Source of the DNA: Phaeacidiphilus oryzae TH49
Lineage (GTDB): Bacteria > Actinomycetota > Actinomycetes > Streptomycetales > Streptomycetaceae
Direction: 5' to 3'
NCBI RefSeq assembly: GCF_000744815.1
Contig: NZ_JQMQ01000005.1
Span: 4,729,801-4,793,800 of the forward strand
Length of the DNA: 64,000 nt
Below are positions 5,950 through 64,000 of this stretch, in pieces (the first letter of the stretch is position 1; each line of letters starts with the position of its first letter). A program made the translations under genes and the position numbers. Under the pieces are notes generated by a model that worked only from the letters and a program-made list of their open reading frames with translations, did no database searches and had not been told where the DNA came from.

Positions 5950-6579
5950 GTGTCCGTGATCAGCCTGAACAGTACCTTCATCATGTTCCTGGCCGTCGTC
6001 GGCCCGCCCAAGGTGCTGCTGGCCTACGCCCAGGTGGCCGCCCGGATGACGGTGCGGGAGGCGCATCGGACGGCCGCGGCCGCCTCCGGGGTGGCCGCGG
6101 TCCTGGGCGTCGCCGAGGCGTACACCGCCCACTATGTGACGGACTTCTTCCACATCACCGACCAGTCGCTCGAACTGGCCGGCGGGGTGATCTTCTTCGT
6201 GTACGCGATGGGCCTGGTGCTGGGGCTGCACCTGGGCGGGCCGAGCGAGACCGAGTTCGAGGCCGACCACCCGGTCACCAGCGGCTTCCGCGCGCTGCTG
6301 CTGCCGTACGTGGTCAGCCCGCTGGGTGTGACCGCGATCCTGGTGGAGTCGCTGAGCCGGCACGACTGGAGCTGGCGGACCGAGGTGGCCGCCGGCTTCG
6401 TCTCGGTGGTGGCCATCGACCTGATCTGCATGGTGCTGCTGACCCGGTTGTTCAAGCGGACCCACCACACCACCCTGGAGGTGCTGTCCCGGCTGCTCGG
6501 CCTGCTGCTCGCCGCGGTCGGCGTCGAGCTCTTCCTCCAGGGGCTGAAGGAGCTCGGCGTCCACCTGCCCGTGCACTGA
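5950..6579 (+). CDS. MarC family integral membrane protein (UPF0056)
   Basis: About 209 aa with six predicted transmembrane segments and the typical MarC N-terminus (FLAVVGPPKVLLAY). High-GC codon usage. Confidence 0.8.
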   Translation: MSVISLNSTFIMFLAVVGPPKVLLAYAQVAARMTVREAHRTAAAASGVAAVLGVAEAYTAHYVTDFFHITDQSLELAGGVIFFVYAMGLVLGLHLGGPSETEFEADHPVTSGFRALLLPYVVSPLGVTAILVESLSRHDWSWRTEVAAGFVSVVAIDLICMVLLTRLFKRTHHTTLEVLSRLLGLLLAAVGVELFLQGLKELGVHLPVH

Positions 6580-41973: not shown

Positions 41974-42160
41974 GCCGGCCCGCCGGCCCGGCGCAGGCCC
42001 TTAGGGTCCAGCAAGGGGCAAGGGGCAAGGGGCCCGGGGAGCTGCATCGCCCGCCCACGGCGCCGCCGCCCTCGGCAAAGGTCACCGGGTCGCGACCCGA
42101 GGTCCGTCGCCGAGTGCGGCAGCCCGTGCCGCTGGGCGCGCGGCTCCCCCGGCCCCTCAT

Positions 42161-42203
42161 GAGCCCTTCGGGCTCAGCGGGGCCGCTGCGGGCCGGCGGC
42201 CCC
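42161..42203. terminator. Two consecutive GC-rich hairpins between convergent chitinase and GGDEF-EAL genes (candidate bidirectional terminator)
   Basis: gagccc-ttcg-gggctc (42161-42175) and ggggccg-ctgcgggc-cggcccc (42179-42203), the second abutting the minus-strand stop codon. No U-tract, as is common in high-GC actinobacteria. Confidence 0.35.
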
Positions 42204-59397: not shown

Positions 59398-60801
59398 GTG
59401 ACAAGCGTGACGTCCGCACAACGCACCGCCTGGGCGCTTACGCACCCGCGTGCCCGCGCCTGGCTGCGCCGCTACCGGCGGCTGCGGCGCGCGGACCTGC
59501 GCCACCCCTGGCGGCTCGACCTGCTGCTGGTGGTCCTGGTGGTGATCCTCGGGGTCAGCGGGCTCGGCTATCCGCACCGGGCCCCGTTCGGCCCGTCCAC
59601 CGGGACGGTGCCGACCACGGTGGCCTTCGCCACCATCGCCGGCCAGGGGATCGCGCTCTTCTGGCGGCGACGGGCCCCGCTCGCGGTCTTCTACGTGGTG
59701 CTGGCGCTCTGCACGGCGCAGTGGCTGGGGGGCGCCTTCTACCGCAGCGACGTGGCGCTGATGGTGGCGCTCTACGGGGTCGCCCGGCACAGCCGGGTCG
59801 GGCAGCTGCCGTGGGTGGCCGGGGCGACCCTGGTCGCCCTGGTGGTTCCCGCCGTACGGGCGAATCCGCTGGTCAGCACGCCCGACTCGCTCTTCTTCCT
59901 GATCTCGGCGGCGACCGCGGCGGCCGCGCTCGGACTCGCCGCGAGGATCCGCGAGGCGCAGCTCGCCGTGCTGGCGGAGCGGGCGGCCCGGCTGGAGATC
60001 GAGCGCGAGCAGCGGGTCCAGCTCGCCACCATCGCCGAACGGGAGCGGGTCTCCCGGGAGATGCACGACATCATCGGCCACAACCTGGCCGTCATCATCG
60101 GGCTCGCGGACGGCGGGGCGTCCATCGCCGCAGCCGACCCCGGCAGCGGCGCCGAGGCGATGCGGATCATCTCCGAGACCGGCCGGCACGCCCTGGCCGA
60201 GCTGCGGGCCACCCTCGGCGCGCTGCGCGACCGGCCCGAGAACGGCCGCCTGGACGCCGCGGAGCTCTCGCCGCAGCCCGGGATCGCCGAGCTCCACGGG
60301 CTGCTGGAGCGGCTGCGGGCGGCCGGGCCCGAGGTCGTCTACACCACCTCGGGCGACCCGGAACGGGTCGCGCCCAGCGTGCAGTTGGCGGTGTACCGGA
60401 TCGCCCAGGAGGCGCTGACCAACGCGCTGAAGCACAGTGGATCGGGTACCCGGGTACGGGTGGCGCTGCGGATCACCGACCGCGAGGTGAGGCTCGGCAT
60501 CTGGGACAGCGGGCCGGTCGGCGCGGAGGCGGCGGCCCCGTCGAGGTGGAGACCGGGGCGGGCGGCCGAAGCGGCGGAGGCCGGGGAGGCGGAGCGGCGG
60601 GGCCTCGGGCTGGTCGGCATCCAGGAGCGGGCCGGGCTGATCGGCGGCCGGGCCGGCGCCGGGCCGCGGCCCGGCGGAGGCTGGAAGGTGTGGGCGGTCC
60701 TGCCGCCGCACCCCGATCCGTTCACCGAGGAGTCGGGCGACCCCGAGGAGGACGGGGAAGACCGAGAGCGAGCACCCGACCACGAGGAGGGGCACCGGTG
60801 A
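59398..60801 (+). CDS. Two-component sensor histidine kinase (HisKA_3, NarL-family partner)
   Basis: Transmembrane N-terminus, H-box ERERVSREMHDIIGHNLAVI, HATPase_c (EALTNALKHS...GLGLVGIQERAGLIGG). Confidence 0.85.
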   Translation: MTSVTSAQRTAWALTHPRARAWLRRYRRLRRADLRHPWRLDLLLVVLVVILGVSGLGYPHRAPFGPSTGTVPTTVAFATIAGQGIALFWRRRAPLAVFYVVLALCTAQWLGGAFYRSDVALMVALYGVARHSRVGQLPWVAGATLVALVVPAVRANPLVSTPDSLFFLISAATAAAALGLAARIREAQLAVLAERAARLEIEREQRVQLATIAERERVSREMHDIIGHNLAVIIGLADGGASIAAADPGSGAEAMRIISETGRHALAELRATLGALRDRPENGRLDAAELSPQPGIAELHGLLERLRAAGPEVVYTTSGDPERVAPSVQLAVYRIAQEALTNALKHSGSGTRVRVALRITDREVRLGIWDSGPVGAEAAAPSRWRPGRAAEAAEAGEAERRGLGLVGIQERAGLIGGRAGAGPRPGGGWKVWAVLPPHPDPFTEESGDPEEDGEDRERAPDHEEGHR

Positions 60802-61481
60802 CCACCGTGCTGATCGTCGACGACCACCCGTTGCAGCGGATGGGCTTCCGCATGCTGCTGACGGGCAGTCAGGAGACCACGGTGGTCGGCGAGGCCGAGA
60901 ACGGCGCGGAGGCCGTCCGGAAGACCGCGGAGCTGCGGCCGGACGTGGTGCTGATGGACGTGCGGATGCCGGGGATGGACGGGATCGAGGCGACCCGGCG
61001 GATCGTCGCCTCCGGCGGGCGGTCCCGGGTCCTGGTGCTGACCACCTTCGACCTGGACGAGTACGTCCACGCCGCGCTGCGGGCGGGGGCCAGCGGGTTC
61101 CTGCTGAAGGACGCGCTGCCGGACGAGCTGCTGGCGGGGATCCGGGCGGTCGCGGGCGGCGACGCGGTGGTCGCCCCGGCGCTGACCCGGCGGCTGCTGG
61201 CCAGGTTCACCTCGACGGAGGGGAGCGAGGGGGTGGCGCCGGCCTCCTCGCCCGAGCGGCGGGACGACGTGCGGCTGGCGTCGCTGAGCGGGCGGGAGCG
61301 GGAGGTGCTGGAGGCGGTCGCGGCGGGGCTGACGAACGGTGAGATCGCGGAACAGCTGGTGCTGTCGGAGTCCACCGTCAAGAACCACGTCAGCCGCGTG
61401 ATGACGAAGCTGGGGGCGCGGGATCGGGTGCAGCTGGTCATCTACGCGTACGACGCGGGGCTGGTCCGGCCGTCCGGCTGA
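60798..61481 (+). CDS. NarL/LuxR-family response regulator
   Basis: GTGA overlap with the kinase; receiver domain (VLIVDDHPLQRMGF...DVVLMDVRMPGMDG) and LuxR HTH (LSGREREVLEAVAAGLTNGEIAEQLVLSESTVKNHVSRVMTKLG). Confidence 0.9.
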   Translation: MTTVLIVDDHPLQRMGFRMLLTGSQETTVVGEAENGAEAVRKTAELRPDVVLMDVRMPGMDGIEATRRIVASGGRSRVLVLTTFDLDEYVHAALRAGASGFLLKDALPDELLAGIRAVAGGDAVVAPALTRRLLARFTSTEGSEGVAPASSPERRDDVRLASLSGREREVLEAVAAGLTNGEIAEQLVLSESTVKNHVSRVMTKLGARDRVQLVIYAYDAGLVRPSG

Positions 61482-61508
61482 CGCCCTTTCAGCGCCGCAG
61501 GCGCAACG

Positions 61509-61640
61509 AAGGGGCGCGGGGAACTGCGCGCCCGGCCGGTTACGGTCTGTCAGTCGGCAGCGGAGTTCGGGTTGCAACCCATTGCCCGATGCCGGGTGCG
61601 GCGCCGCAAGTGGCTGGGCGCGCAGTTCCCCGCGCCCCTT
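61509..61640. repeat. Perfect 24-bp inverted repeat pair (AAGGGGCGCGGGGAACTGCGCGCC / GGCGCGCAGTTCCCCGCGCCCCTT) flanking an 84-nt spacer with a central 12-bp palindrome
   Basis: Read directly: IR-L 61509-61532, IR-R 61617-61640, central GGGTTGCAACCC at 61569-61580. Lies in the 180-nt gap between the convergent response-regulator and dnaE genes. Confidence 0.8.
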
Positions 61641-61660
61641 ACTCGGCCCTTCGGGCCTGC

Positions 61661-64000
61661 TTACGCGGCGCCCATCCAGCAGTTGGGGCCGAGGACCGTC
61701 TTCAGTTCGGAGGCGAGGCCGTTCTCGGGGTCGACCGAGAGGCCCAGTTCGAAGAGGACGCTCTTGCGGCGGCCCTGCATCAGCAGCCGGACGGGGACGT
61801 CGCCGGGGTGGGCGCGGAGCGTCCGCTTGAGGTCGGCGATCAGGGGGACGGTGATCCGCGTCTCGGGGACGGCCAGCTGGACCGGCGGGCGGCCGCCGTT
61901 CTCCACCGAGGAGACGTCCAGCGGCTGGATCTCCGAGCCGAAGACGGACAGCGCGCCGTCCCGCTCGTTCAGCCGGCCGCGGACCGACACCACGTTGTCC
62001 TCCACCAGCAGCTGCGAGACCAGCTGGTACGACTTGGGGAAGAAGAGGACCTCCACCGAGCCGTCCCGGTCGGCCAGCTGGATCAGCGCCCACGCGTCGC
62101 CGCGCTTGTTGATCCGCTTGTCGACGGAGGTGATCAGCCCGGCGAGCCGGACCTCGCCCTCGGTCCGCCCGGAGCCCAGCAGCTCGGCCACGGAGGTGTC
62201 CCGGTTGGCGGAGAGGATCTGCTCGGCGCCGTCCAGCGGATGCGCGGAGACGTACAGGCCGAGCATCTCCCGCTCCAGGCCGAGCCGGTGCTTCTTCGGC
62301 CACTCCTGCTCGTCCAGCTGGAAGTCGAGGCCGAAGGACTGGCCGCCGGAGCCGGCCCCGCCGCCCTCCGGTTCGAGGGCGCCGAAGAGGTCGTCCTGGC
62401 CGATCGCCCGCTGCTTCTTGACGCCGGTGACCGCGTCGATCGCGGTCTCCGCGACGGCGGAGAGGCTGCGCCGGGTGTGGCCGAGGGAGTCGAAGGCGCC
62501 GGCCTTGATCAGCGAGTCCATCGCCCGCTTGTTGCAGACCGGGAGCTCGACCTTGTCCAGGAAGTCGGCGAAGGAGCTGTACTTGCCCTTCTCCTTCCGG
62601 GTGGCGACCAGCGACTCGATGACGTTGTCGCCGACGTTGCGGATCGCCCGCAGGCCGAACCGGACGTCCTCGCCGACCGCGGTGAAGTCCGCGACCGACT
62701 CGTTGACGTCGGGGGAGAGGACGCGGATGCCGGCCGAGCGGGCGTCGGCGAGGTAGATCGCGGCCTTGTCCTTGTCGTCGCCGACCGAGGTGAGCAGCGC
62801 GGCCATGTACTCGGCGGGGTAGTTGGCCTTGAGGTAGGCGGTCCAGTAGGAGACCAGCCCGTACGCGGCGGAGTGCGACTTGTTGAAGGCGTAGCCGGCG
62901 AACGGGACCAGCACGTCCCACACCGCCTGGATCGCCTCGTCCGAGTAGCCGCGCTCCTTGCAGCCCGCGTGGAAGGGGATGAACTCCTTCTCCAGGACCT
63001 CCTTCTTCTTCTTGCCCATCGCCCGGCGGAGGAGGTCGGCCTGTCCGAGGCTGTAGCCGGCCAGCACCTGCGCGGCTCGCTGCACCTGCTCCTGGTAGAC
63101 GATCAGGCCGTAGGTGGGGCCGAGGACCTCCGCGAGCGGCTCCTCCAGCTCGGGGTGGATCGGCACGATCTCCTGCTGGCCGTTCTTCCGCAGGGCGTAG
63201 TTGATGTGCGAGTTCATCCCCATCGGGCCCGGCCGGTAGAGCGCCGAGACCGCGGAGATGTCCGCGAACTCGGTGGGCTTCATCAGCCGCAGCAGCGCCC
63301 GCATGGGCCCGCCGTCGAGCTGGAACACGCCCAGGGTGTCGCCGCGGGAGAGGAGTTCGAAGGTCGTCGGATCGTCCAGCGGGATGTCGTCGCAGACGAC
63401 GTCCACGCCCCGGTTGGCCTTGATGATCTGGATGCAGTGGTCGATGATGCCGAGGTTCCGCAGGCCCAGGAAGTCCATCTTGATCAGGCCCATGGACTCG
63501 CAGGACGGGTAGTCGAACCCGGTGATGATGGTGCCGTCCTTGTCCCGCATGTGCATCGGGATCAGGTCGAGCAGCGGGGCCGAGGAGAGGATCACCGCGG
63601 CGGCGTGGACGCCGGTGTTGCGGATCAGGCCCTCGATGCCGAGGCCGGTGTCGATGATCTTCTTGACGTCCGGCTCGTTCTCGTAGAGGGCGCGGATCTC
63701 GGTGCCCTCGTTGTACCGCGGGTGCTCCTTGTTGAAGAGGTCCGCGAGCGGGACGCCCTTGCCCATCACGTCCGGCGGCATCGCCTTGGTGATCCGGTCG
63801 CCCATCGCGAAGGGGTAGCCGAGGATCCGGGAGGCGTCCTTGACGGCGGCCTTGGCCTTGATCGTGCCGAAGGTGTTGACCTGCGCGGTGTACTCGGTGC
63901 CGTACTTCTCCGAGACGTAGCGGACCATCTGGTCGCGCTGGCGGTCGTCGAAGTCGATGTCGACGTCCGGCGGGTTGATCCGCTCCGGGTTGAGGAAGCG
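61661..64000 (-). CDS. dnaE: DNA polymerase III alpha subunit (DnaE), C-terminal part; gene continues beyond the window
   Basis: Pol III alpha finger, beta-binding and OB regions (GLIKMDFLGLRNL, QLDGGPMRALL, LYRPGPMG, QADLLRRAMGKKK, FNKSHSAAYG). The frame is open to the window end. Confidence 0.9.
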   Translation of the reverse strand, partial: RFLNPERINPPDVDIDFDDRQRDQMVRYVSEKYGTEYTAQVNTFGTIKAKAAVKDASRILGYPFAMGDRITKAMPPDVMGKGVPLADLFNKEHPRYNEGTEIRALYENEPDVKKIIDTGLGIEGLIRNTGVHAAAVILSSAPLLDLIPMHMRDKDGTIITGFDYPSCESMGLIKMDFLGLRNLGIIDHCIQIIKANRGVDVVCDDIPLDDPTTFELLSRGDTLGVFQLDGGPMRALLRLMKPTEFADISAVSALYRPGPMGMNSHINYALRKNGQQEIVPIHPELEEPLAEVLGPTYGLIVYQEQVQRAAQVLAGYSLGQADLLRRAMGKKKKEVLEKEFIPFHAGCKERGYSDEAIQAVWDVLVPFAGYAFNKSHSAAYGLVSYWTAYLKANYPAEYMAALLTSVGDDKDKAAIYLADARSAGIRVLSPDVNESVADFTAVGEDVRFGLRAIRNVGDNVIESLVATRKEKGKYSSFADFLDKVELPVCNKRAMDSLIKAGAFDSLGHTRRSLSAVAETAIDAVTGVKKQRAIGQDDLFGALEPEGGGAGSGGQSFGLDFQLDEQEWPKKHRLGLEREMLGLYVSAHPLDGAEQILSANRDTSVAELLGSGRTEGEVRLAGLITSVDKRINKRGDAWALIQLADRDGSVEVLFFPKSYQLVSQLLVEDNVVSVRGRLNERDGALSVFGSEIQPLDVSSVENGGRPPVQLAVPETRITVPLIADLKRTLRAHPGDVPVRLLMQGRRKSVLFELGLSVDPENGLASELKTVLGPNCWMGAA

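Follow-up and report, generated by a model that had tools for sequence, protein, structure and literature searches.

The palindromic element between a response-regulator gene and dnaE of Phaeacidiphilus oryzae is REP-like repetitive DNA of streptomycete gene-end spacers

In Phaeacidiphilus oryzae TH49, a response-regulator gene and dnaE converge on a spacer of 179 nt (61482-61660), which is filled by an element with perfect inverted repeats around a central palindrome. Does this element belong to the two genes between which it lies, or is it a piece of repetitive DNA that occurs elsewhere as well? The original prediction, made from the letters of the locus, considered a bidirectional terminator, a MITE-like or REP-like element, and a structured small RNA. 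In the following, the window is the whole stretch of DNA that was analysed, i.e., 64,000 nucleotides of the P. oryzae genome with a G+C content of 74%, to which the coordinates refer (Table 1), whilst loci from other genomes are given with their L numbers. The response regulator is encoded by the last gene of a kinase-regulator pair, which is preceded by the gene for a HisKA_3 histidine kinase. The DnaE fragment encoded in the window is 100% identical to DnaE of P. oryzae; no other DnaE in the database comes closer to it than 86% identity. As will be discussed below, the element is a REP-like repetitive element rather than a one-off terminator, because copies of it are scattered through streptomycete gene-end spacers, and it is not a small-RNA gene either. 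Specifically, we consider it probable (roughly 0.7) that the element is one copy of a REP/BIME-like short interspersed repeat of the Streptomycetaceae, which probably is mobile and non-autonomous.

Table 1. Features of the spacer between the response-regulator gene and dnaE and of the second doublet in the window
Feature	Coordinates	Strand	Description
Response-regulator gene	60798..61481	+	NarL/LuxR-type (Pfam Response_reg and GerE); stop codon TGA at 61479-61481
Left outer hairpin	61492..61504	+	Small; GCGCC-GCA-GGCGC; 10 nt past the response-regulator stop codon
Inverted doublet	61509..61640	.	132 bp; two family units tail to tail, heads outermost
Left head	61509..61533	+	Includes the invariant family core AGGGGCGCGGGGAACTGCGCG
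Left tail	61534..61568	+	GGCCGGTTACGG...; diverged form of the family tail ACCAGCC...CCGCAG
Central palindrome	61569..61580	.	GGGTTGCAACCC; tip of the hairpin
Right tail	61581..61615	-	On the minus strand CAGCCACTTGCGGCGCCGCACCCGG...; near the family tail consensus; better-scoring arm
Right head	61616..61640	-	Exact reverse complement of the left head (25/25 identical)
Right outer hairpin	61645..61657	-	Small; GGCCC-TTC-GGGCC (minus strand: GAA loop); 3 nt past the dnaE stop codon
dnaE, 3' part	61661..64000	-	DNA polymerase III alpha; runs off the window; stop codon TAA at 61661-61663
Second doublet	42027..42158	.	Diverged, also exactly 132 bp; heads 42027-42051 and 42134-42158; centre 42087-42098

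The predicted 24-bp inverted repeat was recovered, with AAGGGGCGCGGGGAACTGCGCGCC at 61509-61532 and its exact reverse complement at 61617-61640, and it extends one base pair further than was claimed: C at 61533 pairs with G at 61616, and the repeat is thus perfect over 25 bp. In 100 shuffled versions of the window with preserved dinucleotide composition, such a repeat was found 0 times, even when up to three mismatches were allowed. The central palindrome GGGTTGCAACCC lies midway between the arms, as predicted, and exactly on the symmetry axis of the element (61574/61575). Both arms of the doublet are matched by a model of the family unit described below (nhmmer E-values of 4.6e-10 and 3.2e-6). 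Thus, the 25-bp "terminal inverted repeats" and the imperfect palindrome of 132 bp arise because two units lie tail to tail. The two tails are only 51% identical to each other; the arm on the minus strand (...GCGCGCCCAGCCACTTGCGGCGCCGCACCCGG...) fits the family tail well, and the arm on the plus strand less well.

Both small outer hairpins, as well as a second copy of the element in the window, had been left out of the original prediction. The hairpin next to the response-regulator gene corresponds to the 5' hairpin module of the family units. Together with a hairpin at 42161-42175, the outer hairpins share GC stems and GCA or TTC (GAA) triloops and a position 3-10 nt after stop codons. Hairpins of this type, i.e., with a variable stem and a GNA loop, also precede the head in many family copies elsewhere.

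The halves between the perfect arms had been described as not complementary, and the element, consequently, as not simply one long hairpin. Both statements go too far, as the inner halves are complementary in part. In register, 25 of the 42 inner positions form Watson-Crick pairs, as compared with 31% expected from base composition (binomial p = 1.2e-4), and an inverted-repeat search returned arms of 85 nt with 71% complementarity. At minimum free energy, either strand folds into just one hairpin, long and imperfect, with 56 pairs, 32 of which are in the inner part. Fold prediction of both strands, which had been suggested as a check, yielded stable RNA hairpins of -127.6 and -117.6 kcal/mol with z-scores of -8.65 and -7.49 for the two strands; as DNA, the element folds with -73.6 kcal/mol and a z-score of -8.0. 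The hairpin begins 28 and 20 nt from the two convergent stop codons.

Such a strong predicted structure could indicate that the element encodes a structured small RNA. However, the chance of this is close to negligible, as no Rfam family covers the element and its best matches are to miRNA models far below threshold (28 bits for the window element against a gathering threshold of 128 bits). Likewise, none of the single units in 18 loci matched an Rfam family, and a unit in L120 that was scanned permissively reached at best 16 bits versus a gathering threshold of 42.7. In addition, a promoter scan found no promoter-like site at the element, copies of the family are equally frequent in both orientations, and the tails of the arms are no more complementary within than between elements. 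Thus, with no Rfam match, no promoter-like site and no strand bias, the small-RNA claim is not borne out. Unrelated Rfam matches in the family loci are a tmRNA gene (L104, 5913-6299) and a ZTP riboswitch (L011, 3381-3467).

The second copy, at 42 kb, was the second-ranked result of the inverted-repeat scan of the window, and upon alignment it has the same layout as the first. Its heads are outermost (AAGGGGCCCGGGGAGCTGCATCGCC and, on the other strand, GAGGGGCCGGGGGAGCCGCGCGCCC), its centre is GGGTCGCGACCC where the 61.5-kb copy has GGGTTGCAACCC, and it is followed by an outer hairpin, GAGCCC-TTC-GGGCTC. It is also located between convergent genes, in this case for a CBM5/12 protein and a PAS-GGDEF-EAL protein. 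A profile made of the two copies matched both of them with nhmmer (E-values of 3e-44 and, for the second copy, 3e-37), and no further copy was found in the 64-kb window at E <= 10-20. For P. oryzae, only two doublets are thus visible, in 64 kb. The second copy folds as one hairpin as well (-122.9 kcal/mol, z-score -4.5), and its heads have decayed to 72-80% identity with the consensus. At 42013-42033, the heptamer AAGGGGC is present three times in tandem, abutting and overlapping the left head; apparently, the seven bases with which the head starts were multiplied by slippage.

Copies of the arm are found far beyond P. oryzae. The family was sampled by searching a collection of species-representative genomes for exact matches to the 19-mer GGGCGCGGGGAACTGCGCG, which is the core of the arm; in such a sample, the conservation of the head is biased, and copy numbers are lower bounds or biased. 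The 19-mer was present in at least 120 genome stretches holding at least 163 copies. Among the matches listed, all named hosts are Streptomycetaceae, i.e., Streptomyces, Kitasatospora, Streptacidiphilus, Actinacidiphila and 'Streptoverticillium', next to one metagenome-assembled genome of the Actinomycetota, and 13 genomes have the 19-mer at two or three separate loci. The element is also contained in eight large Streptomyces plasmids, with 5-9 places per plasmid of 1.2-1.5 Mb and up to 9 places in 1.47 Mb. No annotated feature underlies the matches in the seven annotated plasmid records, and there was no match in phages.

The unit of the family is ~50-65 nt long and consists of a variable GC hairpin, a pyrimidine-rich linker that ends in AG, an invariant head of ~21 nt, GGGGCGCGGGGAACTGCGCG, and a semi-conserved tail. 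The consensus of 158 copies reads YYYYTNAG-GGGCGCGGGGAACTGCGCG-ACCAGCC(A/C)C(N)AC(N3-5)CCGCAG, and position-by-position counts over the same copies showed that positions from about -8 to +43 relative to the core are conserved and that those beyond are at background level. The GC-rich hairpin lies directly 5' of the head or uses the GGGGCGC of the head as its 3' arm, and its stem sequence varies between copies. A stem of at least 6 bp beside the head was found in 65% of the copies versus 36% when the upstream sequence was shuffled and 28% in flank controls, and GAA and GCA triloops are strongly enriched in these head-adjacent hairpins. Paralogous copies within one genome, i.e., in Streptomyces sp. 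NPDC048172 and in S. griseocarneus, share the hairpin and up to ~175 nt. The hairpin is, therefore, part of the repeat and not a pre-existing terminator. In Streptomyces sp. NPDC048172, three loci (L036, L072 and L113) contain a composite repeat of ~175 nt that is about 76-89% identical among them. AGACTTC is found at or close to either end of this repeat, and its 3' end has a short tandem duplication, GCAGACTTCCCAAGC.

A profile of the unit detected 190 copies in the 938 kb of family loci, or 192 when the two arms in the window are counted, and these form 132 clusters. Single units make up 90 clusters (68%). The remainder are tails-in inverted pairs as in the window (9 clusters), heads-in pairs (12), tandem pairs (11) and longer arrays (10), with periods of ~51 to 134 nt in the tandem arrays. 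CRISPR arrays were considered and rejected: the periods are irregular (51-134 nt), the stretches between the cores are homologous to each other, and no model of a CRISPR direct repeat was matched. On their reverse strand, the type I-E CRISPR repeats of enterobacteria do have GGCGCGGGGAAC(T) in common with the head (e.g., 61514-61526), with the CCCCGC/GCGGGG stem in the same position, and a string search led to papers on CRISPR typing in Salmonella and E. coli. As the arrays of the family are not CRISPR-like, we judge this similarity coincidental.

These arrangements bear on the reading of the window element as a classical MITE, i.e., a deletion derivative of an insertion sequence, 132 bp long and with terminal inverted repeats of 25 bp, both of which would be bound by the DDE transposase that moves it. 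The perfection of the inverted repeats, the presence in the window of a second 132-bp copy whose ends likewise point outward, a size in the range of MITEs and the GGGG at the start of the head, which is also how the ends of the Tn3 family begin, are all compatible with it. However, no direct repeats flank the element, since the 5 bp on either side are ACGAA and TTACT at 61.5 kb and GGGCA and CATGA at 42 kb, and, more generally, no direct repeat of 2-10 bp that could represent a target-site duplication was present at the ends of either window copy or of L100. The predominance of one-ended single units and the occurrence of heads-in pairs and direct arrays do not fit with mobilization through two inverted ends either, and no transposase gene bearing these ends was found in the 938 kb. 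We, therefore, regard a classical MITE as quite improbable. Of the REP-like or MITE-like element originally proposed, the repetitive nature stands, as evidenced by the dispersed arm motif and the second 132-bp copy, but the picture of a MITE bounded by terminal inverted repeats has little support, in view of the lack of a target duplication at either copy, the abundance of units with a single "repeat" and the occurrence of tandem arrays.

Where the copies are located was analysed with gene calls from a simple GC3-based caller, which reproduces the genes around the window element; as this caller is crude and the sample was drawn with an exact 19-mer, the figures on context and conservation are approximate. 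Only 11 of 156 classifiable matches are genic. By cluster, 37 spacers are convergent, 56 tandem and 6 divergent, versus 110, 314 and 103, respectively, in the background (chi-square p = 1.5e-5). The median distance of a unit to the nearest facing stop codon is 45 nt, and to gene starts it is 225 nt. The orientation of single units relative to the upstream gene is unbiased (15 vs. 24, p = 0.2), and in convergent spacers the head and the tail are nearer to the stop codon in 13 and 12 cases, respectively, i.e., without preference. Such a distribution, which resembles that of REP/BIME elements, argues against a strand-specific RNA function. The possibility that the T-rich linker was co-opted as a terminator tail was rejected, as this linker is no commoner where the head faces a stop codon. 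The neighbouring genes are unrelated housekeeping and accessory genes with no common function. A gene for a LysR/OxyR-like regulator, the sole recurrent neighbour, is located just upstream of a unit in four genomes (L031, L073, L091 and L120); this neighbourhood may go back to an old insertion that has been conserved, or the site may be a preferred one.

In five other Streptomycetaceae, i.e., S. monticola (L121), Streptacidiphilus (L123), Kitasatospora (L124 and L125) and Streptomyces (L126), the region 3' of dnaE is without the element, and the neighbouring genes differ. Since these relatives do without it, the element is not a conserved signal of dnaE or of the regulator gene. In Streptomyces sp. 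SP17BM10 (L073), an unrelated, truncated single unit is located ~30 nt from the dnaE stop codon. There, a truncated reverse head and a hairpin-plus-head unit lie between an OxyR-like gene and dnaE (6357-6420), the 3' spacer of dnaE thus being occupied independently for a second time. For the locus itself, the message is, thus, modest: the palindrome is repetitive DNA and not a control element specific for dnaE or the regulator.

The same data weigh on the proposal that the element is a bidirectional intrinsic terminator of the two convergent genes, the repeat structure being otherwise meaningless. The convergence of the genes, the short distances to both stop codons and the very stable hairpins on both strands suit such a function, and stem-loops without U-tracts and bidirectional 3' ends have been reported for transcripts in Streptomyces (PMC8269248). 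However, the sequence recurs in the window, and more than 100 other genome stretches contain it as well. As a sufficient explanation, the terminator is already refuted by this copy number; overall, we deem it highly improbable. The original prediction had reasoned that a unique occurrence would identify a plain terminator, and the element being multi-copy, the outcome is against it. Furthermore, no U-tract follows the hairpin, which makes termination uncertain, and a terminator scan found no site for want of a T-run. The family has no strand preference relative to the upstream gene, each of the two genes has its own small hairpin beside the stop codon, and the site is not conserved 3' of dnaE in relatives. 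What can be retained from the terminator claim is a possible local side effect of a stable hairpin near both stops, but a multi-copy, unoriented sequence without a U-tract is not explained by it.

How copies arise and disappear can be seen from comparisons within and between genomes. Over the 70 nt after the head, copies at different loci of the same genome have a median identity of 0.657, versus 0.60 for copies of different genomes (Mann-Whitney p = 1.5e-4), and the best pairs of tails within a genome reach 0.76-0.89, whereas the 95th percentile across genomes is 0.70. Thus, genome-specific subfamilies exist, since copies of the same genome are more alike than those of different genomes. In the orthologous spacers L071 and L090, the former has an extra unit with a perfect head beside a unit with three substitutions in the head, and the latter has one unit. 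In another orthologous pair, the doublet is intact in L057, whilst the left unit in L027 is without its head. In these few cases of copies that were not picked by the exact core, i.e., the first unit of L071, the left unit of L027 and the 42-kb copy, the heads decay about as fast as their surroundings, which favours the view that perfect heads are recent copies over in-place selection on every head. The family, then, is dispersed and multi-copy, occurs nearly only in spacers at the 3' ends of genes and in either orientation, and its copies are gained, lost and decaying at given sites.

Alternatively, the copies might be host cis-elements under selection at each site, i.e., functional gene-end modules and not selfish DNA, with the head as the binding or processing site of a conserved protein of the Streptomycetaceae. 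Candidates would be a nucleoid protein, a topoisomerase, an RNase or a termination factor. At least five genera have an identical head, but a variable sequence 25 nt beyond it, both heads of the 61.5-kb copy are perfect though its tails have diverged, and there is a strong preference for sites beside stop codons. Binding of host proteins, e.g., IHF and gyrase, is also known for the REP/BIME elements of E. coli. Nevertheless, we consider this explanation unlikely. When not chosen by the exact core, heads decay as neutral sequence would; the flanking genes have no common function, and there is no orientation bias; the occurrence of the element 3' of dnaE is not conserved in relatives; and the genome-specific subfamilies and tandem arrays resemble proliferation. 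As to the 61.5-kb copy, in-place selection on the head or gene conversion could equally explain heads that are 25/25 identical next to tails with 51% identity. Concerted evolution of the arms was rejected as a candidate, as the arms within a doublet are no more alike than those of different doublets.

If, as we prefer, the family is a non-autonomous mobile repeat, an enzyme with its gene elsewhere would copy the units or doublets to new sites, in P. oryzae the entire 132-bp doublet as one piece. This enzyme would recognize the head, probably as a hairpin or as a single strand. Copying via the head would explain why young copies combine perfect heads with drifting tails and why no target duplication is seen. 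The lack of a target duplication, the dominance of single units, the appearance of new units beside old ones and the position of a non-palindromic core beside a structure argue for a mechanism directed by a single strand or a hairpin, as in IS200/IS605-RAYT or IS110, rather than for a MITE that is cut and pasted by a DDE transposase. Among the genes beside the 192 units, no transposase or recurrent protein family was found, and a tblastn search of the 938 kb of sampled loci for a Y1-transposase-like gene gave no significant match, with an approximate query (IS608 TnpA) and with loci in which a single-copy gene is rarely sampled. Since the orthologous spacers recovered contain no clean case of a filled versus an empty site with exact ends, transposition is something we infer rather than demonstrate.

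More tentatively, the 21-nt head may mark a long-lived, vertically inherited replicator that is spread over the Streptomycetaceae, i.e., an actinobacterial counterpart of the REPIN-RAYT system with a putative head-recognizing enzyme or host protein, an extension of the preferred reading which we regard as rather doubtful. If true, it would add a counterpart of REPIN-RAYT that is absent from the searchable literature on REP, RAYT and MITEs, and if a dedicated enzyme recognizes the head, REPIN-type domesticated replicators would extend to Gram-positive bacteria of high G+C content.

Besides being a repeat, the doublet probably has local consequences. Because it lies so close to two convergent stop codons and would form a very stable hairpin in either transcript, the hairpin, when transcribed from either side, would probably act as a barrier that ends or stabilizes the 3' ends of the transcripts of the regulator operon and of dnaE. 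This would occur by blocking or pausing the polymerase or by protecting the 3' end from exonucleases. In E. coli, REP elements protect the 3' ends of transcripts from exonucleases.

No published account of the family was found in the full-text literature, which was also searched with sequence strings and which leaves older subscription literature outside its reach. The papers on REP, RAYT and small repeats that were checked do not mention Streptomyces or Actinobacteria in such a connection. In kind, the family is ordinary; as a family, it apparently is uncatalogued. Antibiotics come mainly from streptomycetes, the genomes of which are heavily mined and engineered. A repeat family at many gene ends bears on the prediction of operon boundaries, on the calling of terminators and small RNAs, on assembly and on strain typing, and its hairpin modules are candidate natural insulators.

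The closest known kinds of elements are REP/BIME and REPIN, followed by MITEs and the mycobacterial MIRUs, strict membership of REP or REPIN not being established. The 'I-shaped' intrinsic terminators of high-GC actinobacteria also are GC-rich stem-loops without a U-tract just after a stop codon that can be used on both strands. These, however, are defined by their function at one site, whereas the family described here is a repeat with an invariant core that is not needed for the hairpin. MIRUs resemble it as actinobacterial intergenic repeats of 40-100 nt that form tandem arrays of variable copy number (cf. L071/L090, L001, L093 and L098). MIRUs are direct tandem repeats within operons, often with short ORFs; they differ from the streptomycete family in that they are not hairpin-centred and lack its motif. 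Bacterial MITEs, such as Correia/NEMIS, RUP and the Tn3-derived TIMEs, are of similar size, are intergenic, have perfect terminal inverted repeats and can fold as RNA. In contrast to these, no target-site duplication was seen for the streptomycete element, no parent insertion sequence was found in the limited sample of genes next to the 192 units, and most members have no second inverted end.

REPINs are hairpin-forming doublets of REPs that are mobilized by RAYT, and the system is defined by a single-copy gene for a Y1 (HUH) transposase that the repeats flank in the same genome. Like a REPIN, the inverted doublet in the window folds into one long hairpin, and it is present twice in the window; the two 132-bp doublets align from end to end and both fold as long hairpins, although two copies are a thin basis for comparison. 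In contrast to REPINs, single units in the family far outnumber tails-in doublets (90 versus 9 clusters), the halves within a doublet are no more alike than the halves of different doublets, and no cognate single-copy transposase was found among the sampled streptomycete loci.

REP elements are conserved imperfect palindromes of 20-40 nt with a conserved tetranucleotide tag, GTAG or CGTC, at the foot, whereas the core of the streptomycete family, AGGGGCGCGGGGAACTGCGCG, is a non-palindromic 21-mer beside a hairpin with a variable stem, and the consensus upstream of it, YYYYTNAG, contains no GTAG or CGTC tag. The streptomycete unit is also longer, i.e., 50-65 nt and in certain genomes as much as about 175 nt, and its host lineage is the Actinomycetota. 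On the other hand, the REP/BIME elements of enterobacteria and pseudomonads are, like the units described here, short, GC-rich and hairpin-forming, and they are found in the spacers at the 3' ends of genes in both orientations. Both occur as singles, inverted pairs and mosaic clusters and in species-specific variants, and neither shows a target duplication. Thus, being extragenic, located mostly downstream of genes, present in either orientation and often clustered, the streptomycete family has the distribution that is characteristic of REP/BIME elements.
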